Positions 18,061 through 45,041 are shown, counted from the first letter of the stretch. The stretch: 64,000 nt of DNA from an uncultured Clostridia bacterium (GCA_947177735.1 CAMWVP010000001.1:1761-65760), one strand, 5' to 3'. Notes: generated by a model from the letters alone, not told the origin. Numbers and translations are program-made.

Positions 18061-18176
18061 TTGTGGAAAAGTCCACATTCACGAGAAGCCCTCAGATACG
18101 AGAAAACTGCTTGTCGGTCAGCCTTAATGGCTGCCGAACAAGCAGTTGACGAAACAGATGAGGGTTTATCGACAGT
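18061..18176 (+). mobile_element. MITE-like element, copy A (degenerate, short variant)
   Basis: GAGAAGCCCTCAGA...GATGAGGGTTTATCGACAGT core; 6-bp deletion in inner TIR. Confidence 0.75.
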
Positions 18177-18203
18177 GCCGCACTGGCGGGCGGCACTGAA
18201 TAA

Positions 18204-21143
18204 TTATGCGTTGATCTCTTCCGGCTGAGCCGCCCTTCTTTCTTCGGCAGCGGCTTCAATATCCTTTTCCCACAGCTCCTCAAAGTCTTTTATGGTCATA
18301 GGCTTCGCGAAATAATAGCCCTGCACCATATGACACTCGATATCCTGCAAAAAGTTTACCTGCTCGACGGTCTCGACGCCCTCGGATATGACCCGCATAT
18401 TGAGGTTATTCGCCAGATCGACTACCGTCGAAATAACGGCTCTGCCCTTTTGAGAATTGACCGTGTCACTGAAGAACTCGCGGTCTATCTTTACCACGTC
18501 GGCGGGGATATCCTTAAGCATATTCAGCGAGGAATAGCCCGACCCGAAATCGTCTATCGACAGCTTAAAGCCGATATCGTGCAGCTTCTGCATCACCCGG
18601 AGCATCAGATCGGCGTTATCCGTGAACACGCTCTCGGTCAGCTCCAGCTCGATATACTCATACGGTATCTCGTACTTGTCGACTATCTCGCGCAGACGCC
18701 AGATATAGTCGTCGTTGTTGAGGTGCAGACGCGACTGGTTGACCGAGATCACAACGGGCGTAAGCCCTCTGTTAATCCAGCGCCGCATCGCCTTGCAGAC
18801 CTCCTCGAGAATGAAGAAATCAAGCTCCACAACAAAGCCGTTCTTCTCCGCTATCGGAACGAACCTGTCGGGAAATACAAATCCGTACTCCTTGCTGTTC
18901 CAGCGGATAAGCGCTTCGCCGCCCTCGATATGCTTCGACTGCGTGCCGTACTTAGGCTGAATGTAGCACATAAACTCGTGCTCCTTGAGCGCGGTCGGCA
19001 TAACGTTCTCGTAGTCCTTTTCGCGCAGGGCGTCGTCGCGCACCTTACCGTCGTAGAACGCTATCGCGTTGCTGTGTCTGCCCTTTATCGTCCTCTTTGC
19101 GATGTTGCAGCGGTCGATAGCGACGTTGAAGTCAACCATATCGTATTTGTCAACGCACTGTCCGAGTCTGCACACGCCCGCGCTGAACAGCACGGGATAG
19201 GACACGAACAGCGAGTTTCGGCGTTCAAACTCGGTAAAGATACTGTTTATCCTGTTTTCGATATCGGTATCGGTTGCATTCCTTATCGTGCAGGCGAAGT
19301 TATCGTCCGAAATGCGCGCATAGACCTCGCCCTGCTCCATATGATCGCCGATCGTCTTATACAGCCGCTCGAGCATACGGTCACCCTCGGCGTAACCGAG
19401 ATGATCGTTGATAAACTTGAACTTGTCGATATCAAAAACGACCGCCGCCCATTTATCGGGGCTCGACTTCTTAAGCACCTTTTCCGAATCGGTCATATAT
19501 TTGCGCTTGGTGCGTCCGCCCGTGAGAGTGTCTACCCCGGCGATGCGGCGGCTCTTTAGCGTTGCGAGCACGATAAACACCGCGAGCGCTCCCGCGAGTA
19601 TCACAAATCCACCGACTATGAGCCAGATGTTCATATCGTTCCCGTCGGTCGTAACGTCCGCGGAATTTATAATAGTGTAAATGTCAACGATAGACTCATT
19701 GCCGTTGATGTGCGCTATCGACTTTTCCATAATGCTTCTCAGCTCGTCATAACGCCGCGTTATCGCGAAGCACTCCGAGCGAAATACCGGCAGCACGTCA
19801 AATATGTGCATCTCTTCATACTGCGTGGTTTTCAGGTAGATCGCGTCCTGACAGTCCATACACACAAAGCTCTCGCGTCCCTTGTCCACCATCTCGCACG
19901 CTATCAGATTGGTGGAGTATCGGGAGATACCCGCCTGCGAATGGAAACGCTCGAGGTACTTTATGACCTCGATCTCACTGCTCGCTATCGCGATATCGGA
20001 GGTCTCGGTGAACTCCGACTCCGCCCTGCCCGCGATGACCATCGGCGAGCGCGTAACGGGCGCGGAGACAAAGTACCCCGAATAGCCGTCTATCCCGCTC
20101 GGGGGAATGCCGCCGAAAACGATATCCGCCTCCTCGGCTGCCATCGCGTTCATACAGTCGGTAAGAGAGTTGTAAGCCCTGACCTTCATCTCAAGCCCCG
20201 TGCTCTCCGATATACGATCCATGATCGTTCCGGCAATGCCCGTGAGCTTTTCGGTCGACGGGTCGTAAGACGAGGTAGTATCCGAGCTGAGATTAAAGGC
20301 TATAACTATCCGGTCGGTATTGTTGAGGAAGCTGTGTTCGGCGTCGGAGTAGGCATACTTCTGCGAGCCGTAAACGGAGATGTTTTTCTGATACGTGTCT
20401 CCCGGGAACGACGGGTAGTTCATAAACAGCTTGGACATTGCGCCCGCTATGTCCGCGGCAAGGGCGGTGTCGTCCGCGCGGGTCACGAAATAGCACGACT
20501 CCGTATCGAACTGGTAAACTATCGTCTCGTCCTCCCACGGGCGGAAGCAGTTCTTAGCCACCGCGTCCAGCTTTCCCGAAATGAAATCCGCCTTCATCGT
20601 AGCCTCGGTGTTGTACTTGACGAACTGCGCGTTTTCGAGTTCGCTCTTGACGAACTTCCCGCCGCGGAAAAAGTCGCCCTCGTCCTCCGGCAGATATCCT
20701 ATGCGCATACTGCGCACGGCAAGGGTGTCGTTAAACGACACCGCGCTTTGTTCGCCCTTGTCGTATACGTAAATGGCGCTGAATTTCGTTATCAGCGAAA
20801 AGCCCGCTGTGGCAAACTCGTTGCCGCCGTACAGCTCGAGCTCCCGCTCCGAAACGCAGGGAATCAGATCGATCTCGCCGTCGCGGAGCATATCGAACAG
20901 CTCACCCGGCATACCGTCTATGTACGTAAAGCGGTTCCCGGTATATTTCGCGAACTGATCGACATAATCGCAGGCAAGCCCGGATATACCCGTGTTCGTT
21001 CGTATAACGCCGAATTTTCCGCAGACGCCCACAACATAAGTTTTCGTATCATCCGCCGATGCAAAGCTCGGCGTAAACGCCGTCAGAAAAATAAACAGTG
21101 CCAACATCAACGCCGAAATCCCGCCAAAGATGCGCGTCATCAA
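18204..21143 (-). CDS. Membrane c-di-GMP phosphodiesterase (two extracellular substrate-binding-like domains, TM, degenerate GGDEF, EAL)
   Basis: N-terminal signal/TM, PBPb-like repeats, TM at ~505-530, RISDDNF at the GGDEF site, GEALIRW and DDFGSGYSSLNML. Confidence 0.88.
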   Translation of the reverse strand: MMTRIFGGISALMLALFIFLTAFTPSFASADDTKTYVVGVCGKFGVIRTNTGISGLACDYVDQFAKYTGNRFTYIDGMPGELFDMLRDGEIDLIPCVSERELELYGGNEFATAGFSLITKFSAIYVYDKGEQSAVSFNDTLAVRSMRIGYLPEDEGDFFRGGKFVKSELENAQFVKYNTEATMKADFISGKLDAVAKNCFRPWEDETIVYQFDTESCYFVTRADDTALAADIAGAMSKLFMNYPSFPGDTYQKNISVYGSQKYAYSDAEHSFLNNTDRIVIAFNLSSDTTSSYDPSTEKLTGIAGTIMDRISESTGLEMKVRAYNSLTDCMNAMAAEEADIVFGGIPPSGIDGYSGYFVSAPVTRSPMVIAGRAESEFTETSDIAIASSEIEVIKYLERFHSQAGISRYSTNLIACEMVDKGRESFVCMDCQDAIYLKTTQYEEMHIFDVLPVFRSECFAITRRYDELRSIMEKSIAHINGNESIVDIYTIINSADVTTDGNDMNIWLIVGGFVILAGALAVFIVLATLKSRRIAGVDTLTGGRTKRKYMTDSEKVLKKSSPDKWAAVVFDIDKFKFINDHLGYAEGDRMLERLYKTIGDHMEQGEVYARISDDNFACTIRNATDTDIENRINSIFTEFERRNSLFVSYPVLFSAGVCRLGQCVDKYDMVDFNVAIDRCNIAKRTIKGRHSNAIAFYDGKVRDDALREKDYENVMPTALKEHEFMCYIQPKYGTQSKHIEGGEALIRWNSKEYGFVFPDRFVPIAEKNGFVVELDFFILEEVCKAMRRWINRGLTPVVISVNQSRLHLNNDDYIWRLREIVDKYEIPYEYIELELTESVFTDNADLMLRVMQKLHDIGFKLSIDDFGSGYSSLNMLKDIPADVVKIDREFFSDTVNSQKGRAVISTVVDLANNLNMRVISEGVETVEQVNFLQDIECHMVQGYYFAKPMTIKDFEELWEKDIEAAAEERRAAQPEEINA

Positions 21144-21377
21144 AAAACCACCTCCAAGTTACCTTAGAAAGCAAAAAAATAAAATCTAAGGTAACAATGT
21201 CGGAAAACCGAAAAAGGTTGCCGCCTTACATTTCTTTTTATTGAATTATGTATCCTAAGTGAAATAACTTACTCAATATATTATAGCATTTTATGAAACA
21301 ATTTTCAATACTTTAGTATAATTTTTTCAGTTATGCAACAAAAGAAAGTTTTATTTTAGACATTTTGCACAAAAACA

Positions 21378-21406
21378 TTGACAAACCGCCAACAATATGG
21401 TATAAT
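21378..21406 (+). promoter_or_regulatory. Sigma-A promoter upstream of GH13 gene
   Basis: TTGACA-17bp-TATAAT. Confidence 0.75.
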
Positions 21407-21601
21407 TATTTTGACAACTTTGCCCCGAAAAGGGCTGCTGTATAAACACATATTGATCTTCCGATTAAACTTTTCAGGGATTTTCGGCGTTTTCCCCGCC
21501 TCCGGCAGAGAAAACGCCGAAAATAAGCCTAAAATACGGCAAATATTTAATTGGGGAGCAATAATACAGCTGTTAAAAAAACGAAATAAGAGGTAATCAC
21601 T

Positions 21602-22924
21602 ATGAAATGGTATGAAAACGCGGTGTTCTATCACATTTATCCCATCGGGTACTTCGGGTGCCCGCGAACCAACGATCAGTCGAGCGAGCCGACCCACAAG
21701 ATACTTAAGCTTATCGACGATATCCCCCACATCAAGGAGCTCGGCTGCAACGCGATCTATTTCGGGCCGATATTCGAGAGCGTAGCACACGGCTACGACA
21801 CCATCGACTACAAGACCGTCGACCGCCGTCTCGGCACCAACGAGGACTTCAAAAAGGTCTGCGATGCGCTCCATGAGAACGGCATCAGGGTAGTTCTCGA
21901 CGGCGTATTCAATCATGTAGGGCGCGATTTCGTTCACTTCAAGGACGTGCGCGAGCATAAGCTCGGAAGCGGCAAAAAGGACTGGTTCCACGTTCGCGAG
22001 GGCAACTCCTGCTACAACGACGGCTTCTACTACGAGGGCTGGGAGGGTCACTACGAGCTTGTAAAGCTCAACCTCTACAACGGCGAAGTAAAGCAATATT
22101 TAAAGGACGTTATCACGGGCTGGAAGAACGAATTCGGCATTGACGGTCTGCGTCTTGACGTTGCGTACTGCCTCGACCATAACTTCCTGCGCGAGCTGCG
22201 CGGTCACTGCAAGTGGCTCAGCGAGGACTTCTTCCTGCTCGGCGAGACCCTCCACGGCGATTACAATATGTGGATGAACGACCAGATGCTCGATTCCGTT
22301 ACCAACTACGAGTGCTATAAGGGCTTGTTCTCGAGCTTCAACGATATGAATATGTTCGAGATCGCGCACTCGATAAACCGCCAGTTCGGAAGCGAAAACT
22401 GGTGCCTCTACAGAGGAAAGCACCTGTACACATTCGTCGACAACCACGACGTAACGCGCGTTGCGACTATCCTCCGCACCAAGGAGCACCTGCCGCTTAT
22501 CTACACTCTGATGTTTATGATGCCGGGCATTCCGTCCGTATACTACGGCAGCGAATTCGGTATCGAGGGCGATAAGCGCGGAGGCGGCGACGACGCTCTC
22601 CGTCCCGAGTTCGACCTTGAGAAGATGAAATCCGAGGGACACCGCGACCTCTCCGAGCACATCAAGTCTCTCGCCGAGATCGAAAAGAACCACCCCGCAG
22701 CAGCGATGGGCGACTACAAGCAGGTACAGCTCACGAACAGGCAGTACGCGTTCTCGCGCTCTGCGGACGGTGAGACCCTGCTTACCGTTATCAACGCGGA
22801 CGGCGCGCCGTTCACGTTCAACCTGAATATGGGCGGAGAGGCGGAAAATCTCCTCACGGGCGAAAAGCAGCAGCTCGGCGGACTGACCCTGCCCGCGTTC
22901 ACGAGCGCAGTATTTAAAGTGTAA
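21602..22924 (+). CDS. GH13 alpha-amylase family glycosidase (cyclomaltodextrinase/neopullulanase-like, cytoplasmic)
   Basis: Conserved regions DGVFNH, GLRLDVA, GETLH, FVDNHD; YYGSEFG. Confidence 0.9.
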   Translation: MKWYENAVFYHIYPIGYFGCPRTNDQSSEPTHKILKLIDDIPHIKELGCNAIYFGPIFESVAHGYDTIDYKTVDRRLGTNEDFKKVCDALHENGIRVVLDGVFNHVGRDFVHFKDVREHKLGSGKKDWFHVREGNSCYNDGFYYEGWEGHYELVKLNLYNGEVKQYLKDVITGWKNEFGIDGLRLDVAYCLDHNFLRELRGHCKWLSEDFFLLGETLHGDYNMWMNDQMLDSVTNYECYKGLFSSFNDMNMFEIAHSINRQFGSENWCLYRGKHLYTFVDNHDVTRVATILRTKEHLPLIYTLMFMMPGIPSVYYGSEFGIEGDKRGGGDDALRPEFDLEKMKSEGHRDLSEHIKSLAEIEKNHPAAAMGDYKQVQLTNRQYAFSRSADGETLLTVINADGAPFTFNLNMGGEAENLLTGEKQQLGGLTLPAFTSAVFKV

Positions 22925-22963
22925 CTCACATTCAACATATACCGCTGCAACAAGGAGTTCGTT

Positions 22964-23401
22964 ATGAAAAAGAAAACCGCAATGATCCTGTTGGGCGTTT
23001 TAAGCGCAGTTTTCGCGATAGTCGTCGGCACCCCTATGATTTTCCTTATGGCTTGGCTGGGAGATGATTGGGGCGCCGGCGCGGTGGTGATCGCGGTGAG
23101 CATTTTCGCTTTGCTGCACGCTGTCTGCTCGACCCATGCGGCTAAGCGCTACAAACGGAAATACGAGCTTTCCGCGCCGAAATACGCGCTGCTGAATGTT
23201 TTGCCAATGCTTGCCATTGCGGTACTGTTATTTGCCGCGGCTTATTTGATCGGCGATTGGGACGGGGTGTTTTTGGCTCTCGGCGCGATATCCTTAGGGG
23301 GCTACACGGTCGGTTACGCGGCAGTGCTTTCGGCGGTCATGGGGATTTCGTATGCCGTTAGCAGAAAGAGGAGCACAGAATGGGAAAAGACAACGCGATA
23401 G
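22964..23401 (+). CDS. Small multi-TM membrane protein, RRYGISA family copy 1
   Basis: RBS AAGGAG; about 4 TM; motif KRKYELSAPKYALLNVLP. Confidence 0.75.
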   Translation: MKKKTAMILLGVLSAVFAIVVGTPMIFLMAWLGDDWGAGAVVIAVSIFALLHAVCSTHAAKRYKRKYELSAPKYALLNVLPMLAIAVLLFAAAYLIGDWDGVFLALGAISLGGYTVGYAAVLSAVMGISYAVSRKRSTEWEKTTR

Positions 23402-23802
23402 CAATGCTTATAGCTTTCGGCAATATGCTCATTATTGCCGTAGGGGCGGCGCAGTTAATGCTTATGTCGATAATGTGGTTTCTGCCCGTGATAATTGCGG
23501 TTCTCGTTCTGCACATAATTGCAACGAAGTTCTCCTGCCGCCGCTTTTGGCGTAAGTACGGAATATCGGCGGGGCGGTACATTTTATACGGCGCTCTGCC
23601 CGCCGCCCTGATAAATTTTGCTGCGTTAGCGGTGGTATTTGTTCTCACGCAAGCCGGTTTTACAACGTTACTGCTGCCGTCAATAGACATGATACCGCTG
23701 GAATACCCGCTTTTAATCTTTGCAGCGGGGTATTCGACCGTATACATAATAATTACGGCGGTAGTCCTCGAAACGGATAAAATTTATAAGGGCGATGTAT
23801 AA
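23380..23802 (+). CDS. Small multi-TM membrane protein, RRYGISA family copy 2
   Basis: RBS GAGGAG; motif WRKYGISAGRYILYGALP. Confidence 0.75.
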   Translation: MGKDNAIAMLIAFGNMLIIAVGAAQLMLMSIMWFLPVIIAVLVLHIIATKFSCRRFWRKYGISAGRYILYGALPAALINFAALAVVFVLTQAGFTTLLLPSIDMIPLEYPLLIFAAGYSTVYIIITAVVLETDKIYKGDV

Positions 23803-23829
23803 TTGTCATTTGACCGAAAGGAAAATATA

Positions 23830-24216
23830 ATGAACAAAACGACCGCAGTAGCTTTGCTTGTTGTCCTGAATATTATCGCCACACTGCTTAGCGGTATGGC
23901 AATAATACTGCTGATTTTTTCCTTTGGCTTGTTTGCGTCGTTGGTCGGCATTGTTTTTTATATAGAGCAGAGCAGGCTGTCCATGCACGTTTATAAGCTA
24001 TTCAACCGTCGATACGGCATTTCGGCGAAGCGGTATGTGCTGTATGCGGCATTGCCTCCCGCGGCGCTGAGCGTTCTCGGAATTATTGTAATGTTCAATA
24101 TTGAGGGAGGTAATATGGTATTTCCGGGAACATTGTGCTCACTGGGATTGACGATCTATTCGGCGGCGTACCTGATAGAGCTGTCATGGCGGTTTGTGGA
24201 ACAAGATCCCGATTAG
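23830..24216 (+). CDS. Small multi-TM membrane protein, RRYGISA family copy 3
   Basis: ATG 23830 after AAGGAAA; motif NRRYGISAKRYVLYAALP. Confidence 0.75.
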   Translation: MNKTTAVALLVVLNIIATLLSGMAIILLIFSFGLFASLVGIVFYIEQSRLSMHVYKLFNRRYGISAKRYVLYAALPPAALSVLGIIVMFNIEGGNMVFPGTLCSLGLTIYSAAYLIELSWRFVEQDPD

Positions 24217-24283
24217 ATCGGTTATTTTGAAACCTCATACTCTGTTTTATGCGGTTTTCCCCGTTTGCGGCGGGGAAAACCGT

Positions 24284-24424
24284 CAGTCTGTAGAAAAAAT
24301 CATTTAACTCGCATTTCTCAGACTGTCGAGAAGCCCTCAGATACGAGGAAACGGCTTGTCGGCTAGCCTTAATGGCTGCCGAACAAGCCGTTGACGAAGT
24401 AGATGAGGGTTTATCGACAGTCTG
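24284..24424 (+). mobile_element. MITE-like element, copy B (short variant)
   Basis: Outer end CAGTCTGTAGAAAAA, inner TIR CAGACTGTCGAGAAGCCC, right end TTTATCGACAGTCTG; flanked by CGT on both sides. Confidence 0.85.
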
Positions 24425-24702
24425 CGTTTTTCGTTTCCTTAATACGATCGTATGCTTTTGTCATAAACGCTAAAAAAACATGAAAAATTTGTCAACTTTA
24501 ACTCTAAATTGCGCTTGAAAAAAGCGCAAATTTGATGTATAATATTAGGTGAATAAAAATAATGAAATACAAATGGTTTTTTTGTAATGCCTTGGCAATG
24601 CAAAACATCGATTTTAAAATTATTTCTGTTCGCCAATCGTTTTCGCCGGCCGGACGACAACGATTCTCTACCGAAAAAACGGAGAATTGTGAGGTTAATA
24701 TT

Positions 24703-26487
24703 ATGAAAAAAAGTGAAACAATCAGAAGCAGTATCAGACGTGGAAATCTATTGATTCTTGCGGGAGGACTATTCCTTACCGTTTTTTTCACCGTTGCGAT
24801 GATTTTTATCGGAGTATGCCAGCGAACCGAGATAGAATTCAGCGACAATATAGCGAGAACATCAAACTCGATCATAGAAGCGAACAAGATCTACCGTGAG
24901 GTAGACAATATCGTATACGACGGGGTCGCAAACCGCTCACTCGACACGTCTACTCCTCAGTTTAATTCTCTTGTCGCAGCGTCCGCCGAGGAATCGGAGG
25001 ATGTGCGTTCTTTGATAGCGGCAGCGCAGACCCTGTACGACGACTTAAAGAACAAAGAGGCACAGGTAGTGAGCCTCAGTGCGACCGATAACGAAGCCGC
25101 ACAGGATCAGATCGACATAGTCGTTTATCCCGCCCTCACCGCGCTGACCGATAAATTGAACGAGATCTCCGTAAAATATGTTGAAATGACGGAAAAAGCG
25201 GGAAAGGTCGTTACGACGGTCATCGAAACCAGCACAATAGCGGGATTGGTTCTTTTTGTAGCAATGCTTGCGTATTCTCTGCTGATATCCAAAAAAATGG
25301 CGAACAACATTGCCGTTCCCGTTGTTGCGGTAGCGGAATGGGCTGAAACTCTTTCCACGGGTTCGGACAACATCGAATCTATACATACGTCTCTCGATAT
25401 TCAGCTTGAGGAAATACAGCGCATGATAAAGTCGTTTACCGTTATGTCCGAAAACATCAAGGAAAACGTCAACGTCGTGCGCAAGGTGGCGGACGGCGAT
25501 ATGACGGCATATGTCAACATCAGGTCAAGCGAGGACAGCCTCGGAAAGAGCCTGTACAAAATGGTTCAGAGCAACGACATAATGTTCGCGCAAATATCCC
25601 AGATCGCCGATTCCGTGACCGAAGGCACCGATTCCATTGCCTCGGCTGCGAGACTTCTGGCGGAAAGCTGCACCAAACAAGCGACTGCCATCAGCGATTT
25701 CCAAGCGAATATCAGCATCACAAACAAGCTTGTTAAAGAAAATGCCGAGGCAGCCGCTCACGCAAGCGATTTGTCCGACGCTATCCGCAACGAAGTCGTG
25801 GTAAGCAAGGAGAAAATGCAGGAGCTGGTCGACGCTATGCAGGCTATCAATAACGCTTCCGAAAAGATTTCGGGAGTTATCGCCAATATCGAGTCTCTTG
25901 CGAATCAAACCAATTTGCTTGCCATTAACGCTACTATTGAAGCGAAACGCGCAGGCGAAGCGGGCAAGAGCTTTGCGGTGGTAGCCTCGTCGATCAAAGA
26001 CCTGGCGGACAACAGCAAGGCTTCCGCGGCACAGACTAAAATGCTCGTTGACGATACGATCAACAAGGCAAAGCGCGGCAGTCAGATTTCCGATGAGACA
26101 TATACGGCTTTTGAAACGATAATGAATTCTCTTGAGCAGATCATCGACGTCTCGGCCAATATCGCCGATTCCGGCGCAAAGCAGCAAGAGAACATGAGCG
26201 GTATCGAACGTGAGATCGATGAGATATCCAGGGTGGTATCCACCAACGCCGCTTCCAGCGAGGAAACCGCGGCAATGACGGTCGAGATATCCAAAAACGC
26301 CGAGGTGCTCAAGAGCTCGATGAAGCAGTTCAATCTGCGCAACCGCACACCCGGCAAGCCGTACATCCCGCCGGAAAAAGCAAACGACCAAGACTTTATC
26401 CGCATTGCAACCGATAACTACAACAAATTCCTGAATTCTGCCGAGGGCAAAAAGATCGCGGCGGAGATGAAAACCGACAAGCTCTGA
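24703..26487 (+). CDS. Methyl-accepting chemotaxis protein
   Basis: Two TM helices, HAMP, signalling core IESLANQTNLLAINATIEAKRAGEAGKSFAVVA; start moved to ATG 24703 behind GAGGT. Confidence 0.92.
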   Translation: MKKSETIRSSIRRGNLLILAGGLFLTVFFTVAMIFIGVCQRTEIEFSDNIARTSNSIIEANKIYREVDNIVYDGVANRSLDTSTPQFNSLVAASAEESEDVRSLIAAAQTLYDDLKNKEAQVVSLSATDNEAAQDQIDIVVYPALTALTDKLNEISVKYVEMTEKAGKVVTTVIETSTIAGLVLFVAMLAYSLLISKKMANNIAVPVVAVAEWAETLSTGSDNIESIHTSLDIQLEEIQRMIKSFTVMSENIKENVNVVRKVADGDMTAYVNIRSSEDSLGKSLYKMVQSNDIMFAQISQIADSVTEGTDSIASAARLLAESCTKQATAISDFQANISITNKLVKENAEAAAHASDLSDAIRNEVVVSKEKMQELVDAMQAINNASEKISGVIANIESLANQTNLLAINATIEAKRAGEAGKSFAVVASSIKDLADNSKASAAQTKMLVDDTINKAKRGSQISDETYTAFETIMNSLEQIIDVSANIADSGAKQQENMSGIEREIDEISRVVSTNAASSEETAAMTVEISKNAEVLKSSMKQFNLRNRTPGKPYIPPEKANDQDFIRIATDNYNKFLNSAEGKKIAAEMKTDKL

Positions 26488-26494
26488 TTTATTA

Positions 26495-26562
26495 ACTCGC
26501 CGCTGAAGCAAAACGCACAAATCCTGTCGGCGTGATTTGCGCATTTTGCTTCAGCGGCGAGT
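26495..26562. terminator. Long inverted repeat/terminator after MCP gene
   Basis: ACTCGCCGCTGAAGCAAAA...TTTTGCTTCAGCGGCGAGT; ~29-bp stem. Confidence 0.7.
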
Positions 26563-29600: not shown

Positions 29601-29692
29601 CAGTCTGTAGAAAAAGTCTTAAAAAATGGGGTTTCCAAAGGGGCGAAGCCCCTTTGGCAGGGAGTGGGGGCGGAGCCCCCGCATCCTCTCCC
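29601..29692 (+). repeat. MITE outer end fused to a REP-like GC hairpin element (copy G)
   Basis: CAGTCTGTAGAAAAAGTC followed by CCAAAGGGG-CGAAG-CCCCTTTGG and GGGGCGGAGCCCC hairpins; directly after terminator ACCGCGCC-TTGCAA-GGGCGCGGT. Confidence 0.6.
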
Positions 29693-29714
29693 CCCCTCTT
29701 AGAGGAGTTTTTAG

Positions 29715-36241: not shown

Positions 36242-36246
36242 GTGGG

Positions 36247-36728: not shown

Positions 36729-36753
36729 CAAAACGGGAGCTTTAAGCTCCCGT

Positions 36754-36905
36754 CAGACTGTCGATAAACCCTCATCTGCGTCGTCAGCGGTACGGCGGCA
36801 GCCACAAAGGCTAGCCGCCGTACCGAGGTTGACCGCGAAGCGGTCATTCGTCCTAGCATCTGAGGGCTTCTCGACAGTCTGAATGTGGACTTTTTCTACA
36901 GACTG
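36754..36905 (-). mobile_element. MITE-like element, copy C (long variant, hairpin type 2)
   Basis: CAGACTGTCGATAAACCC...GGGCTTCTCGACAGTCTG-AATGTGGACTTTTTCTACAGACTG. Confidence 0.85.
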
Positions 36906-36932
36906 AAACGGGGGCATTATGTTCCCGTTTTA

Positions 36933-37316
36933 TTATGCGGTTATCTCTATCAGATTGCCTTCAGAGTCAGCAATACAGCTTTCATAATAACCGTCGCCGG
37001 TGATTCGGGGGGCGCTTACGATCTCGTAACCGTCTGTTTCAAGCTTATGGGTAAGCTCGTCGACGCGCTCTTTGCTCCCGACCGAAAACGCAATATGAGC
37101 GTAGCCCGTGCGGAAGGGTGTTTTTTCGTGATCGTCAAGCCGAGGGCGGGTCATTATCTCAAGCCTCGCTCCATCGGAAAAGCTCAGAAAATAGGAGCGG
37201 AAGTCCGTGGTCGGGTTGTGATAGCCTGTGTTGGGAATAGCGCAGAAGTATTTTACAAAAAAATCCCTTGTCTGCTCAAGATCGTTTACATACATTGCAA
37301 CGTGTTCTATTCTCAT
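36933..37316 (-). CDS. VOC/glyoxalase family protein
   Basis: MRIEHVAMYV, LEIM, GYAHIAFSVGS, YYESCIADSEGNLIEI; ATG 37316 after GGAGGT. Confidence 0.9.
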   Translation of the reverse strand: MRIEHVAMYVNDLEQTRDFFVKYFCAIPNTGYHNPTTDFRSYFLSFSDGARLEIMTRPRLDDHEKTPFRTGYAHIAFSVGSKERVDELTHKLETDGYEIVSAPRITGDGYYESCIADSEGNLIEITA

Positions 37317-37388
37317 TCGGAACCTCCAAAGAATATCCCGCGCAGCCGTTCGGTTATGGACGGCTGCGCGCATGTATATCGAACTAAT

Positions 37389-38285
37389 TTACATCATATC
37401 CTCAATACGCTCTATCGCACATTCATACGCTGTCTGCCAATCATTTTCCTCAACGGTCAGCCGCACTATCTCAACGTTCATCAGCCGCAGCAGATCGAGC
37501 TTTGCGGGGTTGGCGTAATCGGAGGGATTAAGCTCGAAAAACACTGTTCTGCCCGCGCCTTTGCCCTCGCGCTTTTTGCGGTCAAGCAGCCACCACATAT
37601 CGCTTTCGGCAAACCCGAATCCGTAGCCGAGTATGTACACATCACCGAAGATAAACGCCTCCGACCAGCTCAATATCGCCGGCTCTCCGCCGTTTCCGCG
37701 CAGGAGCGAATAGTACACGCCGCGCTTCTTGTTGAACGCAAGTATTTTCCCGAGCAGCAGCCCGTAATAGTAGTGTCCGAGTATCATCGAGTCGGGCTTG
37801 CGCGCTTCGCCGTGGACGTGCCATATCCTGCGCTCCCTGCCGAGATATTCGGCGCTGTTGTAGGTGTGCAGCATAAGGCTCGCCTCGCACCTGCTCACCT
37901 CGTCGGTGCAGCGCTGCATCTTCTTCAGAGCGCGTTCGCAAACGTTTTCTTCGCCCATGGCGGCGGTCTCCAGCTCGTAGCTGTAATTTGTCGTCAGAAA
38001 ATGGTCGAAATCAAGCGCCAGCAGCCGACGTAAAAGCTCCAGCTGTTTTTCGGGCTTCTTAGTGCCAAGCGCGCTCAGACTGTCCTTTTTGAACTCCAGA
38101 GCCTCGTCAACCCTGTCGCGCGTCACAAGCACCGCCTTAAGCGTCTCGGGGCAGACGTACTCCTCCGCGCCCGACACGCCGTACCGCACAGCTAAAGAGT
38201 TCAGCAGCTGGTCCCACGAATCGCTGTTGAACGCTCTGTTTATACCGTTTCCGAGCAGCAAGACCTGCGGCTTTCCGTTCTTCAC
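37389..38285 (-). CDS. SIR2-like (SIR2_2/AbiH-like) domain protein
   Basis: LLLGNGIN, FLTTNYSYELE, IWHVHGE, VYILGYGFGFAESDMWWLL; probable GTG start at 38285 after GAGGTG. Confidence 0.75.
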   Translation of the reverse strand: MKNGKPQVLLLGNGINRAFNSDSWDQLLNSLAVRYGVSGAEEYVCPETLKAVLVTRDRVDEALEFKKDSLSALGTKKPEKQLELLRRLLALDFDHFLTTNYSYELETAAMGEENVCERALKKMQRCTDEVSRCEASLMLHTYNSAEYLGRERRIWHVHGEARKPDSMILGHYYYGLLLGKILAFNKKRGVYYSLLRGNGGEPAILSWSEAFIFGDVYILGYGFGFAESDMWWLLDRKKREGKGAGRTVFFELNPSDYANPAKLDLLRLMNVEIVRLTVEENDWQTAYECAIERIEDMM

Positions 38286-38424
38286 CGTATCACCTCTAAA
38301 CCTTAATAAAGTCACGTATCATCTCAAACACGGAATTATCTATCCCATTGACCTGTCATATTAAATTTTAACATATATTAGGATGGTTGTCAAGCACGTC
38401 AGCGTATAACAAAACTAAATATTC

Positions 38425-38589
38425 CAGACTGTCGATAAACCCTCATCTACTTCGTCAACGGCTTGCTCGGCAGCCATTAAGGCTAGCCGACAAGCCTAGG
38501 TTGACCGCGAAGCGGTCATTCGTCCTCGTATCTGAGGGCTTCTCGACAGTCTGAGAAATGCGAGTTAAATGACTTTTTTCTACAAGCTG
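38425..38589 (-). mobile_element. MITE-like element, copy D (165 bp) with 10-bp target-site duplication
   Basis: CTAAATATTC at 38415-38424 and again at 38590-38599. Confidence 0.9.
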
Positions 38590-38618
38590 CTAAATATTCA
38601 TTTGTTTTCCGCAAGCCC

Positions 38619-38647
38619 TTGACTTCTTACCTAAAATATGTTAAAAT
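38619..38647 (+). promoter_or_regulatory. Sigma-A promoter (distal)
   Basis: TTGACT-17-TAAAAT with extended TG. Confidence 0.6.
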
Positions 38648-38807
38648 AACTTTATAAGTATATTTTAAGTATATTGCGTAAATAGGATAGATAAAGCTTT
38701 CTCGGATCGTAAAATACGTCGTGTTTTCACTGACCGAAACCGCGAAGCTAAGGCTCAATTATGCAGAATGCTTAAAAAGCGCGCTTTAATTTTAGCTAAT
38801 GATAGTA

Positions 38808-38836
38808 TTGCTTTTTGTTAATGTTTGCCGTATAAT
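38808..38836 (+). promoter_or_regulatory. Sigma-A promoter (proximal) of LacI regulator
   Basis: TTGCTT-17-TATAAT. Confidence 0.6.
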
Positions 38837-38870
38837 TAAACTGTATGAATATGAAACGGGGGGCTAATAA

Positions 38871-39875
38871 ATGCCGAGAAAACAGGTGACGATAGCCGAC
38901 ATAGCAAAAGAGTGCGGCACAAGCACGGTAACGGTGTCAAAGGCGCTGTGCGGACGCAGCGGAGTGAGCGAGGAGGTTCGCGCCAAGATCCGCGAGACTG
39001 CCGACCGTATGGGGTATGTCTCCACTAAATCCGTGTCCAATAAGTTTGAGGGAGTAATTGGCGTTCTTATCCCGAACAAGTTTATAAACCCCAACGGCTC
39101 TTTCTATTGGGCGCTGTATAACGATATCCTGAAGCAGCTAAAAAGCTCGGGCATCTCATGTATACAGGAAAATATCGGCGCAGAGGAGGAGAGCGGGCTC
39201 GTTGTGCCGAATCTGTTCTCAAACAATCGCGTTACGGGCGTTATCTCGCTCGGTCAGCTCAGCGTTCCGTACCTGCATATGCTTATGAACCATACGAATA
39301 ACTTGGTGCTGCTGGATTATTATATCCCCGAGCCGGAACTTGACTGCGTAGTGACGAACGGTTATAACGGCGGCTACACACTGACACGCCACCTTATCTC
39401 GCTCGGACACCGCAGCATCGGCTTTATAGGTACGCGCTCCGCGACTACAAGCATATTCGACAGGTTTATGGGCTACTTAAAGGCAATGCTGGAAAGTGAA
39501 CTGCCGATAGAGCCCGAATGGATCATTCCCGACAGAACCGCGGGCGGAGAACGCTTTGAACGGCTCAAGCTCCCGGACAGGCTCCCGACTGCGTTCGTCT
39601 GCAACTGCGATGAGACCGCTTTTACGGCTATCCGCGACCTCAAGGCGCGCGGCTTGTCCGTGCCGCAGGATATCTCCGTTGTCGGTTATGACAATTATCT
39701 GATATCCGAGATCTCCGACCCGCCCATCACTACTATTCATGTCGACTCGGAGGAGATGGCAAGAGAGGCCCTGAACGCGCTGTTCGAGCGTGTGGAAAAG
39801 CCCGCCGCTCCAAAGAGAACGCGCATACTCACAGGCAGGATAGTAATAAAGGAGTCAACAGGCAAGGTCAAGTAG
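38871..39875 (+). CDS. LacI-family transcriptional regulator
   Basis: VTIADIAKECGTSTVTVSKAL HTH; sugar-binding domain ending VPQDISVVGYDN. Confidence 0.95.
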   Translation: MPRKQVTIADIAKECGTSTVTVSKALCGRSGVSEEVRAKIRETADRMGYVSTKSVSNKFEGVIGVLIPNKFINPNGSFYWALYNDILKQLKSSGISCIQENIGAEEESGLVVPNLFSNNRVTGVISLGQLSVPYLHMLMNHTNNLVLLDYYIPEPELDCVVTNGYNGGYTLTRHLISLGHRSIGFIGTRSATTSIFDRFMGYLKAMLESELPIEPEWIIPDRTAGGERFERLKLPDRLPTAFVCNCDETAFTAIRDLKARGLSVPQDISVVGYDNYLISEISDPPITTIHVDSEEMAREALNALFERVEKPAAPKRTRILTGRIVIKESTGKVK

Positions 39876-39881
39876 CATATC

Positions 39882-39916
39882 AAGAAAGCCCGCACAGAAG
39901 CGGGCTTTCTTTTTTT
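39882..39916 (+). terminator. Intrinsic terminator
   Basis: AAGAAAGCCCG...CGGGCTTTCTTTTTTT. Confidence 0.85.
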
Positions 39917-40168
39917 ATTTATAATATGTATATATGGCGGCGAAAACGGCAACCGATAATTTCGTACTTTAAGCAGTACACAACATATTGTAAACGTGGA
40001 AATATTTCCACAACTCATTGTTCAATATTCACAATGTCATAACTCAAATTGACTAATCTTTTTGTATCATATATCTAAAACCTTAAAGATTAGATTTTTT
40101 AGTTAAATTTACAAGAAGTTTTTTAGAAATTTACAAAAAATGGTAAAAAGCCCTCTTATTTTCAAAAG

Positions 40169-40185
40169 GTTACAAAAAGGTTACA
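40169..40185. promoter_or_regulatory. WalR-like direct repeat (TGTAAC-N5-TGTAAC on minus strand)
   Basis: GTTACA-AAAAG-GTTACA, ~45 bp upstream of a TTGACA-17-TATAAT promoter (40231-40259). Confidence 0.5.
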
Positions 40186-40357
40186 AATCATTTTTGTGAA
40201 ATCTGCATAAAATCAACTTATACTTTCTGTTTGACATTTACGAAAAAAAACGCTATAATAGCATTAACCTTGGCAAAGGGCATGGGTCTTGGCTTGGATT
40301 TGTAAAGAAAATCTTACAAAACCGTAACCTTTATCCACGGCTATTACAGGAGGCATT

Positions 40358-41425
40358 ATGAAACCACAGATAGTGAACGCTAAAATGAATAGGGAGCTCC
40401 TTAAGAGCAAGATCGTTAAGATCGGGCTCTTCTTCGCGGTCGTTGCTTCGATCGTGCTTATGACAGGCTCCTTATCTCTGAAAGACAGCGTATATATCAC
40501 CGACGAGGGTCGGACAAAAGAGATAAAGACAAACGAGACAGACGTATACTCCATTCTCCGCACGGAGGACTACGAGCTCAGCGCGAACGACCGCGTAAGC
40601 TACACCAGAGATGAAAACAACACCGGTCATATCACCATTTACCGCGCGTTCGAGGTAAACGTAAGCGCCGACGGTATGACCCACTCTTTCGCGACGGTAG
40701 GCGGCGACGTTTCCGACGCGCTTGACGCTCTCAACGTCGAACTGGAAGAGGACGATGTTATTGACTATGAGTACTCCGACGAGCTGTTCCCCGATATGAA
40801 GATAACCGTTACGCGCATCGATCATGAGGAATGGCAGGAGGAGATCGAGATTCCATACGATGTCGAGTACATCGACAATCCCAATCACACCATCGGCTAC
40901 GAGGAAGTGCTTACCTACGGCGAGAACGGCGTGCGCACGATCTACTACCGTGATACGCTTGTTGACGGCGAAGTGACCGATACCGTCGAGATCGACGAGG
41001 AAGTAACGGTCGAGCCCGTGAATATGGTCATTGAGCGCGGCTCCGCTACCGCTCACTCCTACTCCGAGACCTTCAGCGATGGCGATGTGGTGCTTGTAAA
41101 CGGCGTTCCCACGAGCTATACGCGCGTTCTCTCGGGCAAGTCCACCGCCTACACCGCTTATCCCGGCGCCGGAACCGCAAGCGGCAGACCCGCAAAGGTC
41201 GGTTATGTCGCGGTCAACCCGAACGTTATCCCCTATGGCAGTGAGCTGTACATAGTGTCGCAGGACGGAAGCCGCGTATACGGCTACGCCATCGCAGCCG
41301 ATACGGGCGGAGCGCTCTTAAACGGTCATGCGCTCGTTGACCTCTATATGGACACCTACGAGGACTGCTGCAGCTGGGGCGTGGTTTATGTTGACGTTTA
41401 CGTGCTCTCGGAAGGCAACGGATGA
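40358..41425 (+). CDS. YabE/Rpf-like cell-wall protein (ubiquitin-like repeats, G5, 3D domain)
   Basis: N-terminal TM; EEEIEIPYDVEYID...GENG G5 domain; STAYTA...VAVNPNVIPYGSELYI...AADTGG...VDLY 3D domain. Confidence 0.9.
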   Translation: MKPQIVNAKMNRELLKSKIVKIGLFFAVVASIVLMTGSLSLKDSVYITDEGRTKEIKTNETDVYSILRTEDYELSANDRVSYTRDENNTGHITIYRAFEVNVSADGMTHSFATVGGDVSDALDALNVELEEDDVIDYEYSDELFPDMKITVTRIDHEEWQEEIEIPYDVEYIDNPNHTIGYEEVLTYGENGVRTIYYRDTLVDGEVTDTVEIDEEVTVEPVNMVIERGSATAHSYSETFSDGDVVLVNGVPTSYTRVLSGKSTAYTAYPGAGTASGRPAKVGYVAVNPNVIPYGSELYIVSQDGSRVYGYAIAADTGGALLNGHALVDLYMDTYEDCCSWGVVYVDVYVLSEGNG

Positions 41426-41441
41426 TTTCTTTTGAACGATC

Positions 41442-41470
41442 AAAAGGCTCCCCGAACAGGGGGGCTTTTT
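41442..41470 (+). terminator. Intrinsic terminator
   Basis: AAAAGGCTCCCC-GAACA-GGGGGGCTTTTT. Confidence 0.75.
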
Positions 41471-41535
41471 CTTGTCTTTTATTTACTTATCGGGCGTTCT
41501 TTTCCATAGTAAATATTGTAAGGACGCGCTAATAT

Positions 41536-41699
41536 CAGCTTGTAGACTAAGTCATTTTAACTCGCATTTCTCAGACTGTCGAGAAGCCCTCAGATGCTAG
41601 GACGAATGACCGCTTCGCGGTCAACCTCGGTACGGCGGCTAGCCTTTGTGGCTGCCGCCGTGCCGCTGACGACGCAGATGAGGGTTTATCGGCAGTCTG
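41536..41699 (+). mobile_element. MITE-like element, copy E (164 bp) with 6-bp target-site duplication
   Basis: TAATAT at 41530-41535 and 41700-41705; hairpin type 2. Confidence 0.88.
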
Positions 41700-41869
41700 T
41701 AATATTTCACATTTGCTGCATATTGCACAAAACCGCCAAAAAAAAGCGTGTAAATTTGTATGCCGCGTTATTGACGAAACAGTCAAAAAATTATATAATA
41801 AAAGTGGCTAACCGTGTTTTCGGGTTTGCTTGGTCGGGCAAAATTGCCCAATTGCGAAAGGAAATAAAT

Positions 41870-44800
41870 ATGATCTGTACAAAATGCAACAGCGAAGTAC
41901 CGAACGGCGCAAAATTCTGCCCCGTTTGCGGAAACGCTTGCGGCACCGCTTCCGATGTGAAGCCTGCTGCCGCCACGCCTGCGCAGGAACAGAAAAGCTT
42001 CTGCGAAAAGTGCGGTCTGGAGCTGAGAAGAGGCGCTAAGTTCTGCGCTGTCTGCGGCACACCCGCGGCAGTCGGAGATATAAAGCCCAGCGCCAACAAC
42101 GGCTCCACATTCGGGGGCGGCGATATGTCGACGATCTCGCTCGACAAGCCCATTGCTTCCGATAATCTTGTCGCGGCTATGAATACCGCGCCGTCGGGTG
42201 TCCCTACACCGTCGAACAGTGTTCCGACACCGTCCGGTTCAGGGTATTCCTCGGGCTTCAGCGGCTACGGCAGTGCGGCTTCGGATATTAACCCCGCTTT
42301 TATCCCCGAATCTCCCGTTGCGCCGCCGTCCTACGCGCCCGCTGCGGATATGGGCAGCACGTCCGGCTCCGAGAATCCGTTCGGCGATATGGGCGCTGCG
42401 GCTGTCGTGGCTACACCTATCAAGAAGAAAAAGACGGGCGCTAAGGTCGCGATCATTATCGCGGCGGCTGTCGCGGTGCTGATAGCGGCTGCGGCGGTGT
42501 TCTTCTTCACGAACAAGGCGACCGCGCTCAGTCTCATTATGGGCAAGTCCAAATACGCGGCAATGGTCGAGGGCAACTCGATAAAGGAAGCGACCGAGAA
42601 GCTTGACCTGCCTTCGTTTGCCAACGGCATAAAGTCCGCGTCCGGCGTAGTCTCCCAACTGTCATCCGTCAACAGAGGTTATATCAGCGACAGAAGCCTC
42701 GGCGCGCTCGGTTTGAGCAATACCGTCGGCTCGGCGGCAGCCGCTCCGATGATGTCCGTGTATTCCGACGACGGCGTCAATATGGAAGAGCTGATCTCCT
42801 CTTATAATAAGCTGATGATGGATACATACGGCGTGAACTCGCTTACATCTACGCTCAGCATGGATATCAAGCTCTCCGACAGCGTTAATAATATCCTTAA
42901 AGACGAGCTCGGCGACGAGTTTGATGAGCTGATAAAGCTCATCAACAAGACCGACTTTACGACAACCGTAAACTCCTCCTCGGATAAGCTCGGCGTTTCA
43001 ATGGGAGTCAGCAGCGGTTCCTCAGTTATCGACGCAAAAGCAGTGTTCACCAAGGACGGCGAGATGTACATCGTTTTCCCGTTTATCTCGGATACGGGCA
43101 TTATGGTGAAGATTCCCACCGGTACCGCCTCTTCCGGTAAGGTCGAGGCTGCGGTGCTCGAGCTTGACGAAAAGGAGATCGAACGTCTCATCGGCGAGCT
43201 GGTGGAGCTGTATCTCGCTGAGTACGCCGACTGTGCTATCGAGATGGAGAACGGTGAGCTTTCCGCCGCGGGTCTTACCGCTACGGGCAAGCTTATCACC
43301 GCAGAGTTTAAGGGCGACGACCTCTCCGACCTGTTCACCAAGCTTGCGGAGCACGTTGCCGACGACGAATACTTCTGCACCAAGATAGTAGACTTTGCAA
43401 ACGAGTGCGGCGCTGACATTACCGCGCAGGACTACAAGGACGCTATCATGGACGCTGTGGACTTCGACGCGGGAAAATCCGACAAGCTGGTTATCAGCAC
43501 CGTTATCGACAACGCGGGCAATGTTCTCGCGAAGTCCTACAAGGCGGTCGCTAATGATGAGATAGTAAAGATCACCTACGTCGACAGCAAGGAGCAGTTC
43601 ACTCTCGAGGCAAGCGAAAACGGCGCGACGGTCGTTTCCGTTGTTCACGATATCACAAGTGAGACAGAGGGTGCCGTTACGCTTAAATGCAGCGACGGCG
43701 ATGACGGTTATGTCACCGTTAAGATGACCTACTCCGATATCGGCAAGGCTAAGTTCTGCGGTCAGGATACCGTAACCGGCACATTCACTATCGGCATAGA
43801 TCTTCCCGCCGACTTTACAGAAGATATTCCCGATGAGCTCGGCAAGTTCTCCAACGTCAAGCTGGCGTTCAGTACTGCCGTAAACGGACAGAACACCATG
43901 GAAAGCTCCGTTAAATTAACGGCGGGCAATCTCGGAAGCATCGCCGTAACCTCCTCGGTTACCGCGGAGAACAGTGACGCGGGTCTTGCACTCCCGTCAG
44001 ATGTTATCGACATAGGCAATATTGACGATATTCCCGATGACGAGGCAATGAAGAAGCTCGAGGAGTACGCAAAGACCGCTGTCGAGAAGCTCAAGGGGCT
44101 TAAGGACGGCGCGTTCGGCAAGCTGCTCGATGATCTGGGATTTTTTGACGAGCTCGACGACATGGAGGGCGCAATGGATCCCGCTGTTCCCTACGGCGAT
44201 GTTGTGGACCTCAGCTCCAAGGTCGCTAAGGCAATGGGAACCGTAAACGGACTCAGCAGCTCCTACAAGGTCAACGACAAGGAGCTCAACGACCGCGCGA
44301 CCGCGCTTATCGGCGACCTCACCCTTCTGTTCAACGATATTAACGCCAAGGGCACGGAAGTAACTCGTGGCGAGTTTGATACCTTTACCAGACGCTACAA
44401 CGCCCTCAACGGGCAGGTTGACACGCTGAAGAGAGACTTTGAGCTCAAGGCGTCGCAGCAGCAGGGTTCGACAAGCTCCACAACTCCCGCTAATCCCACC
44501 AATCCGACTAACCCGACCAACCCCACAAATCCGACCAATCCGCAAACGCCCTCTGCCGGCGGCGCGGAAAGTCTCAACTTTGACACTATGACGGACAGTG
44601 AGCTCGTTGAGGTTCTTGACGAGTATGAGACACGCTATCTTGCGTTGTTCACCGATGAGATACTGATAAAGGTCTTCACCGACCCCGAGCTCGAGTCGAT
44701 GTACAACACCTGTGAGAGCGCGTACAGCAAGGTGCTTGATGATTTTGATCAGTTCATCGACGCGTACATTGACGGAAATTACAGTGTTGCGCTGCTGAGA

Positions 44801-44875
44801 AATCTCAGAAAGTCTACCAGAACGTTCGCCGTTGTAGTGGAACAGTTTGAAAACGCAGTTCAGATAACCGTATAA
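41870..44875 (+). CDS. Large type II membrane protein: cytoplasmic double zinc ribbons, Pro/Ser linker, one TM, ~750-aa extracellular region
   Basis: CTKC..KFCPVCG and CEKC..KFCAVCG; TM VAIIIAAAVAVLIAAAAVFFF; real start ATG 41870 (AAGGAAA RBS), not 41594. Confidence 0.85.
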   Translation: MICTKCNSEVPNGAKFCPVCGNACGTASDVKPAAATPAQEQKSFCEKCGLELRRGAKFCAVCGTPAAVGDIKPSANNGSTFGGGDMSTISLDKPIASDNLVAAMNTAPSGVPTPSNSVPTPSGSGYSSGFSGYGSAASDINPAFIPESPVAPPSYAPAADMGSTSGSENPFGDMGAAAVVATPIKKKKTGAKVAIIIAAAVAVLIAAAAVFFFTNKATALSLIMGKSKYAAMVEGNSIKEATEKLDLPSFANGIKSASGVVSQLSSVNRGYISDRSLGALGLSNTVGSAAAAPMMSVYSDDGVNMEELISSYNKLMMDTYGVNSLTSTLSMDIKLSDSVNNILKDELGDEFDELIKLINKTDFTTTVNSSSDKLGVSMGVSSGSSVIDAKAVFTKDGEMYIVFPFISDTGIMVKIPTGTASSGKVEAAVLELDEKEIERLIGELVELYLAEYADCAIEMENGELSAAGLTATGKLITAEFKGDDLSDLFTKLAEHVADDEYFCTKIVDFANECGADITAQDYKDAIMDAVDFDAGKSDKLVISTVIDNAGNVLAKSYKAVANDEIVKITYVDSKEQFTLEASENGATVVSVVHDITSETEGAVTLKCSDGDDGYVTVKMTYSDIGKAKFCGQDTVTGTFTIGIDLPADFTEDIPDELGKFSNVKLAFSTAVNGQNTMESSVKLTAGNLGSIAVTSSVTAENSDAGLALPSDVIDIGNIDDIPDDEAMKKLEEYAKTAVEKLKGLKDGAFGKLLDDLGFFDELDDMEGAMDPAVPYGDVVDLSSKVAKAMGTVNGLSSSYKVNDKELNDRATALIGDLTLLFNDINAKGTEVTRGEFDTFTRRYNALNGQVDTLKRDFELKASQQQGSTSSTTPANPTNPTNPTNPTNPTNPQTPSAGGAESLNFDTMTDSELVEVLDEYETRYLALFTDEILIKVFTDPELESMYNTCESAYSKVLDDFDQFIDAYIDGNYSVALLRNLRKSTRTFAVVVEQFENAVQITV
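44487..44545 (+). repeat. 9-bp coding tandem repeat, (NPT)n linker
   Basis: PANPTNPTNPTNPTNPTNPQ encoded by synonymous AAY CCN ACN units. Confidence 0.85.
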
Positions 44876-44888
44876 ATACCGACTACAA

Positions 44889-45041
44889 CAGCCTGTAGAA
44901 AAAGTCTACATTCAGACTGTCGAGAAGCCCTCAGATACGAGGACGAATGACCGCTTCGCGGTCAACCTAGGCTTGTCGGCTAGCCTTAATGGCTGCCGAA
45001 CAAGCCGTTGACGAAGTAGATGAGGGATTATCGACAGTCTG
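44889..45041 (+). mobile_element. MITE-like element, copy F (long variant, hairpin type 1)
   Basis: CAGCCTGTAGAAAAAGTCTACATT-CAGACTGTCGAGAAGCCC...TTATCGACAGTCTG. Confidence 0.85.

Follow-up and report, generated by a model that had tools for sequence, protein, structure and literature searches.

We describe here a family of small repeats in an uncultured Clostridia bacterium, as seen in a window of 64,000 nucleotides (nt), which is the whole stretch of DNA that was analysed (GCA_947177735.1 CAMWVP010000001.1:1761-65760). A sequence-only reading of this window had placed six copies of a mobile element, plus a lone end, between the genes from position 18,061 to 45,041. A repeat search and direct reading bear this out: the window holds six copies (A to F) and one isolated end, every copy lies between open reading frames (ORFs), and a 21-nt end pattern (CAGACTGTCGAKAARCCCTCA) has 11 matches compared with 0.00 in shuffled sequence, the outer-left motif being likewise enriched. 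The set needs two amendments, in that copy A is degenerate and the end at 29601 is not simply a broken copy. The genes adjoining the copies are housekeeping genes, encoding GGDEF/EAL proteins, a chemotaxis receptor, SpoVA proteins, a LacI regulator, and a Na/H exchanger, among others. The repeats form a family of non-autonomous DNA transposons, of the kind called MITEs (miniature inverted-repeat transposable elements), in uncultured gut Oscillospiraceae.

The features are listed below with their positions in the window and the element's orientation as read in copy B; SL1 is an optional small hairpin module and SL2 a long stem-loop within the element.

About 18057-18179, plus strand: copy A, degenerate, with a 6-bp deletion in the inner-left end, a mutated right tip, and no SL1; it adjoins the hairpin GTGCCGC..GCGGCAC of the upstream minus-strand gene.
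24281-24283 and 24425-24427: duplication flanking copy B, CGT, 3 bp.
24284-24424, plus strand: copy B, short form without SL1, with a left tail of 35 nt, inserted between a terminator stem (24252-24282) and the T-run of the same terminator.
29601-29618, plus strand: isolated end of the outer-left type, CAGTCTGTAGAAAAAGTC, directly 3' of the hairpin ACCGCGCC..GGCGCGGT.
36731-36753, unstranded: first hairpin copy at copy C, AAACGGGAGCTTTAAGCTCCCGT, a terminator hairpin that is duplicated.
36754-36905, minus strand: copy C, with SL1 and the SL2 variant GGTACGGCGGC..GCCGCCGTACC.
36906-36928, unstranded: second hairpin copy at copy C, AAACGGGGGCATTATGTTCCCGT, diverged, so that the 23-bp duplicated hairpin has an identity of 19/23.
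38415-38424 and 38590-38599: duplication flanking copy D, CTAAATATTC, 10 bp.
38425-38589, minus strand: copy D, with SL1 and a left tail of 35 nt.
41530-41535 and 41700-41705: duplication flanking copy E, TAATAT, 6 bp.
41536-41699, plus strand: copy E, with SL1 and a left tail of 35 nt.
44889-45041, plus strand: copy F, the anatomy reference, with a weak 7-bp duplication (6/7).
44889-44906, 44907-44912, and 44913-44936: outer-left end, spacer, and inner-left repeat of copy F.
44944-44968 and 44970-45006: optional SL1 module (its hairpin at 44949-44963) and SL2 of copy F.
45009-45014 and 45018-45041: conserved TGACGA loop and right repeat of copy F.

The element is 120-165 bp long and non-coding. 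It runs from an outer-left end (CAGnnTGTnGAAAAAGTC) over a spacer to an inner-left repeat (CAGACTGTCGAGAAGCCCTCAGAT), followed by a module slot, SL2 with its conserved tip GGCTAGSCTTWRTGSCTGCC, the TGACGA loop conserved after it, and finally the right repeat (AGATGAGGGTTTATCGACAGTCTG). All three related ends that had been read from the sequence (outer-left, inner-left, and right) are present, with the inner-left one lying 24-35 bp further in; the spacing between the outer-left and inner-left motifs is 24 bp in 22 copies, 25 bp in 4 copies, and 35 bp in window copies B, D, and E. The outer ends have CAGnnTGTnGAnAAA in common, inverted relative to each other, and the mobile unit spans the outer-left end (CAGnnTGTnGAAAAAGT) to the right end (..TTTATCGACAGTCTG). 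Since the inner 24-nt repeats (inner-left and right) pair mutually, the whole element minus its left tail is one imperfect hairpin, giving an architecture in which a 24-35-nt left tail with a third end motif precedes an imperfect hairpin of ~105 nt.

The family is modular. The slot is empty in copies A and B and elsewhere in the window holds SL1 (GACCGCTTCGCGGTC), which is hence optional. At other loci, at least three other small hairpin modules (e.g., GCGAGYGTTTGCAAGCAACCRCCCTGAA and GCACGGGAMMTTGYAAGCAARTTCCCTAA) sit in the slot of SL1, just after CAGATRC (L022, L080, L052, L086, L078, and L100; L014, L024, and L061; L024, L027, and L058). Some copies, moreover, carry a foreign insert of ~62 nt (CAGGCTGCCCTTAGTTGCCCGACATCGTGTCGGGC...) within the SL2 tip, with TTTGTG at either side (L019 2083-2144, L082 5244-5305, and L084 about 3325-3386 on the minus strand, with L055 similar), and another small element thus appears to use the hairpin of this one as its target.

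Outside the window, the family is widespread. A census over the window and 104 fetched loci, leaving out L087 (a re-fetch of the window's own contig, JAIECA010000160.1 of GCA_029068795.1), counted 132 copies. In a scan of one genome per species, at least 86 loci were found in at least 22 species-level metagenome-assembled genomes (MAGs) or assemblies, and among the matches listed all carriers are gut MAGs of uncultured Oscillospiraceae, Ruminococcaceae, or Clostridia (the hosts being human, rabbit, and others). Metagenome contigs (from the Joint Genome Institute and others) added 18 loci, all of them ordinary copies. Viral contigs gave 0 matches, and in plasmids and phages blastn with the element or its right end as query returned nothing or chance 20-mers. 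The earlier suggestion that a genome could hold hundreds of copies was not borne out: in two metagenomes the summed k-mer depth of the end repeats is 400-1650 compared with about 15 in the flanks, which suggests at most about 30-100 copies per genome equivalent, a figure that is a bound rather than a count because other species in the sample may contribute.

The repeat is a mobile element whose copies are polymorphic between strains. Aligning Logan contigs from four related-strain metagenomes (runs X1, X2, X3, and X5) to the window, which is the empty-site comparison by which the earlier reading had proposed to check itself, showed that five of the six copies (B, C, D, E, and F) have a clean empty site, each site with a single copy of the target. 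For copy B, the empty allele joins 24280 to 24425 in X5, as it does with 10 variant letters in X3, so that 24281-24424 (141 + 3) are gone and the hairpin and T-run are restored. For copy C, the joint 36747->36923 in X1, X3, and X5 lacks 36748-36922, that is, 175 bp (152 + 23), and leaves a single perfect terminator hairpin. Element-free alleles at copy D (X1, X2, X3, and X5) keep one TAAATATTC, the allele at copy E (X2) lacks 170 bp (164 + 6) at the joint 41531->41702, and the one at copy F has its joint at 44883->45046 (X2). Copy A is replaced in X3 by 94 unrelated letters, which is not a clean empty site. The duplications read beside copies D (10 bp), E (TAATAT), and B (CGT) are thereby confirmed by empty alleles, as is that of C, which had been suspected of lying within an old long duplication: a single hairpin is present there in relatives, and duplication of a whole hairpin is likewise seen at no fewer than 16 other insertions.

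Besides the empty sites, copies that are 98-99% identical occur at separate loci of single MAGs, and duplications exceed the control described below; together, these observations uphold the proposal of a recently active, non-autonomous element. One human-gut contig (L104 556-677) holds a copy whose left flank is as in L089/L101/L103 and whose right flank is as in L018/L092/L099, so that either two copies have recombined or the assembly is chimeric across the repeat.

To evaluate the flanking duplications, we used 45 full-length copies from the window and 86 fetched loci, with left and right flanks from different copies paired as a control. In 24 of the 45, the flanking direct repeat exceeds the control's 99th percentile. 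Duplication lengths are bimodal, falling at 2-11 bp and 21-27 bp, and all 17 of the 17 long duplications are hairpins whose arms reach within 0-2 nt of both segment ends (exactly so in 11). Of 50 full copies, 33 have a hairpin that abuts the junction, compared with 18% of random non-ORF positions, and 20 have one abutting at both sides of the element. These hairpins are mostly intrinsic terminators, in agreement with the earlier remark that most copies lie beside terminators. The surrounding gene arrangement is convergent in 29 cases, tandem in 52, and divergent in 8. Insertion is thus intergenic, prefers hairpin feet (mostly of intrinsic terminators), and leaves a duplication of either a few base pairs or a whole palindrome. 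From the palindrome-bounded long duplications and the abutting hairpins it follows that the joints track the palindrome end, whatever its length or sequence, which would be expected if the target were recognised in extruded form, with its two feet together.

The element's own hairpin is conserved in a different manner, namely through its pairing. In an RNAalifold analysis of 57 distinct short cores, 22 of 40 predicted pairs show compensatory double changes; paired cells amount to 96.9% (84.7% in shuffles), and 280 cells are changed on both sides, compared with 90 in shuffles and 24-50 with a slid partner column. In its lower part, SL2 is hypervariable but remains paired, even among the copies of one MAG, and each stem variant occurs in several copies. 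The end motifs, the AGGAA and TGACGA loops, and the tip, on the other hand, are almost invariant. What compensatory change preserves is thus the pairing, whereas in the end motifs, both purine-rich internal loops, and the apical loop it is the sequence itself that is kept. One divergent subfamily has inner-left and right repeats that covary (CAGGGTGGCGAGAAAGGCAC with GTGCCTTTATCGCCACCCTG) while its outer-left end is unchanged; the inner-left repeat is therefore constrained by pairing and not only by protein recognition.

Compared with shuffles, folding is far better for both strands (z about -9 to -11), and it is slightly better for the copy-B orientation than for the other. Mismatches in the outer helix are mostly G.T (68, compared with 13 A.C), the corresponding numbers in the inner helix and variable stem being 33 and 18, and among the conserved mismatches about 370 are purine.purine and about 8 pyrimidine.pyrimidine, although these derive from few independent positions. 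The orientation bias is weak: copies lie antisense rather than sense to the incoming transcript in a ratio of 33:19, and opposite rather than along the majority coding strand in one of 34:19. A search of the window against Rfam 15 gave no match to the element at the gathering score, and at E<=10 only chance hits (mir-456 and P33). Hammerhead and other ribozymes, which CUGACGA-like strings had brought to mind, were rejected, as the first position is not conserved, a stem II is missing, and Rfam has no match.

The isolated end at 29601 is kept in contigs of the related-strain runs X3 and X5 and is followed by a stretch (29605-29695) that comprises the GC-rich hairpins CCAAAGGGGCGAAGCCCCTTTGG and GGGGGCGGAGCCCCC and then a C-rich run. 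This stretch occurs once in the window and is absent from the other fetched loci; in related metagenomes, its k-mer depth is 80-330 compared with about 18, so it is multi-copy there, and the contigs diverge at both of its edges. Because it is conserved in relatives and followed by a different multi-copy stretch, the end is not simply the remnant of a broken copy, and 29605-29695 may represent another family of small repeats, one with the outer-left end motif in common. A 408-aa ORF beside the isolated end was considered as a transposase and rejected, since it resembles a lipoprotein. Further isolated outer-left ends stand directly beside hairpins in L043 (3254-3295) and L022 (minus strand, about 4605). 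In L043, one hairpin is bordered by a full copy and, at its opposite side, by an isolated end, an arrangement that suggests repeated hits on one hairpin. A near-palindrome at 46711-46733 (TTTCCCGACAGTCTGTCGGAAAA), inside the 5' part of the Na/H-exchanger gene, looks like right and left ends overlapping by CAGTCTG; it is probably a coincidence, as chance matches are expected at that stringency.

The remainder of the window offers a few observations of its own. An 882-bp unit is repeated three times in tandem at 5715-8374 (85-90% identity), encoding three paralogous ORFs of 290-292 aa that have no match in Pfam or NCBIfam. Three adjoining, partly overlapping minus-strand ORFs at 12003-14617 encode BspA-type leucine-rich repeats (LRRs), and akin LRR genes recur beside element copies at other loci. 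In the region 47000-64000, the minus strand carries a ribosomal-protein/RpoA operon; an S10-Clostridia leader is at 63533-63621. The negative GC skew of almost the entire window agrees with the minus strand being the leading one.

How does such an element move? The copies are small (<300 bp) and non-coding, have terminal inverted repeats and flanking duplications, and are multi-copy and polymorphic in presence, all of which characterizes MITEs. We consider it likely that they are mobilized in trans and that their insertion is directed by structure. A transposase supplied in trans, probably of the DDE type, would bind three CAGnnTGnnGAnAAA sites (two direct at the left and one inverted at the right) and would join the element ends to both strands where an extruded cruciform, or a hairpin on single-stranded DNA, has its base. 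These two points of attack would be near in space and yet a whole palindrome apart in sequence, such that gap repair would duplicate the hairpin, while at non-palindromic sites the same small stagger would give duplications of 2-11 bp. The element's own palindromy may favor extrusion and so bring its two ends together, which could account for the proposed selection for pairing. The cruciform model drawn for the insertion sequence (IS) IS1272, of the IS1182 family, has two branches, an attack at the 3' feet that replaces the stem-loop (the outcome in IS1272) and an attack at the 5' feet that would duplicate it (PMC5678879); the outcome seen here would correspond to the latter. The IS1182 family would be the likeliest source of the enzyme, though membership in it is a real but tentative possibility, drawn by analogy.

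Several points weigh against this account. No transposase, integrase, or RAYT is found among the about 45 ORFs scanned in the window, confirming in part what had been read from the sequence (no transposase), none of these lies close to a copy at the 104 loci, and no transposase with matching ends or RAYT turned up in viral contigs, plasmids, or phages. In the documented cases, IS1272 removes all or part of its hairpin without duplication, whereas the present element duplicates it. The strand-asymmetric mismatches hint that one strand matters as a single-stranded form, and pairing of the interior is not in itself required by double-stranded cut-and-paste.

The absence of the enzyme is weak evidence, because the data are nearly all short-read MAG contigs, which often lack multi-copy ISs. 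The partner was sought as inverted pairs of end motifs 600-5000 bp apart, as ORFs of at least 150 aa clustered across loci, and as ORFs flanked by inverted repeats. The cognate autonomous element with the same ends, which the earlier reading had hoped to trace, turned up in neither the window, the 104 loci, the viral contigs, the plasmids, nor the phages, and a metagenome scan with a pattern that excludes ordinary copies gave 0 matches. ORFs that recur across loci are sigma factors, ABC ATPases, LRR proteins, and similar. The only genes bracketed by ends (for PGK, GyrB, an epimerase, an aminotransferase, and a zinc-ribbon protein) lie between two separate copies.

Among the alternatives, the one that survives best is a MITE moved by a transposase of another family with long or variable duplications (e.g., IS1634/IS4-related, or undescribed) rather than by an IS1182-type enzyme. 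The evidence for mobility applies to it equally, the link to IS1182 is a behavioral analogy only, and no IS1182-type gene was seen in any locus examined. In the literature compared, however, only IS1272/IS1182-type elements are reported to combine structure-chosen hairpins with a tandem left-end duplication of ~25 bp, and we regard the alternative as unlikely, albeit a serious contender.

A decidedly unlikely variant sees in the element, rather than a passive deletion derivative of an IS, a 'mobile hairpin' that is self-contained, made up of a 24-nt 5' tail and the ~105-nt hairpin, with its top strand active in single-stranded DNA. Its movement from hairpin to hairpin would then be the work of an enzyme that recognises the hairpin feet of donor and target alike, and an autonomous counterpart with the same ends would not exist. 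If true, this would amount to a structure-for-structure mode of transposition with whole-palindrome duplication.

Compensatory change could also arise without selection, if template-switch (quasipalindrome) correction copied mutations from arm to arm. Long DNA palindromes are known substrates for this process, and G.T and A.C mismatches in the variable stem are not very different in number (33 to 18). Such correction should nonetheless erase the conserved mismatches, bulge, and internal loops, which are nearly invariant across at least 22 species; moreover, subfamilies with distinct stems each occur in several copies, so that whole functional variants propagate. We therefore hold this explanation to be improbable.

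Could the element primarily be a structured RNA or a cis-regulatory module of 3' untranslated regions (a stabiliser, an RNase III site, or a terminator booster), with mobility being secondary? The covariation is very strong, the purine-rich internal loops are conserved (including tandem G.A), and the outer helix tolerates G.U far more than A.C. Most copies also lie downstream of genes and would be co-transcribed, and the element's sequence is present in a metatranscriptome (X19). Its depth ratio of element to flank is, however, about as in DNA (in unstranded contigs), with no sign of specific expression. Rfam gives no match to the element, even at E<=10, both orientations are found at hairpins, and presence or absence among close strains argues against an essential role for the host. 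As the 33 to 19 bias concerns tandem contexts in which the better-folding strand is antisense to the incoming transcript, a role as sense RNA is not favored, and this reading is very improbable. Finally, it is extremely improbable that, as in REPINs, a long hairpin is moved as single-stranded DNA by an HUH/Y1 enzyme (RAYT or IS200/IS605-type): size, intergenic location near terminators, abundance, the compensated hairpin, the strand asymmetry of mismatches, and the weak bias against the majority coding strand (34 to 19) would suit it, but HUH/Y1 enzymes leave no target duplication whereas duplications are frequent here and confirmed by empty alleles, the terminal inverted repeats are DDE-like with a third motif copy at the left, and no small recurrent repeat-flanked ORF was found, the recurrent or repeat-flanked ones being sigma factors, ABC ATPases, and similar.

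Under the preferred account of trans-mobilized, structure-directed insertion, the family is of interest for several reasons. It amounts to a large natural collection of insertions, for many of which there is a matched empty site, and these show the duplication of a whole terminator hairpin with joints at the exact palindrome end, an outcome that had previously existed only as one conceivable branch drawn in the cruciform model of IS1272. The strictly conserved pairing, loops, and three end motifs offer a precise definition of the substrate with which to search for the enzyme. In the poorly known uncultured gut microbiota, the element breaks assemblies, puts a strong hairpin on many 3' ends, and duplicates terminators, which is relevant to MAG quality and possibly to transcript ends. 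The features worth recording are the whole-hairpin duplications, the tail-plus-hairpin layout with three end motifs, and the strong covariation.

While the class (MITEs) is familiar, the family is undescribed: our literature search found no description of the element's sequence or of a hairpin-duplicating MITE. It resembles Correia/CREE of Neisseria, RUP of pneumococcus, and ERIC/IRU in being small, non-coding, multi-copy, and intergenic with terminal inverted repeats, and likewise in its long hairpin, modular subfamilies, and presence or absence between strains. Those elements, on the other hand, have fixed short duplications (e.g., TA) and different ends, and we know of none among them described with duplication of a whole terminator hairpin or with a third, tandem end motif. 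With REPINs/REP-BIME it shares a ~100-nt hairpin of two inverted halves, an extragenic location near terminators, tens to hundreds of copies, and conserved pairing; REPINs, however, have no target duplication and a repeat-flanked RAYT gene, whereas the present family duplicates its target and no such gene was seen.

For the IS1182 family, ISfinder lists direct repeats of widely variable length (0-60 bp); those seen here span 2-27 bp. IS1272 itself is autonomous and about 1.9 kb long with a transposase gene, unlike the present non-coding element of 120-165 bp. Still, a link to IS1182-type elements is plausible by analogy. IS1272 and its relatives in Staphylococcus (IS1272L and TnSha1), like the present element, choose their target by hairpin structure, often a terminator, and without a sequence consensus, and in IS1272 the same hairpin is hit repeatedly (PMC5678879, PMC4923244). 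IS1272L also has a left end that is tandemly duplicated, terminal repeat included (PMC5678879, PMC4923244), and this tandem duplication measures 25 bp there, while the spacing of the left-end motifs is 24-25 bp in the element described here (35 bp in three window copies).

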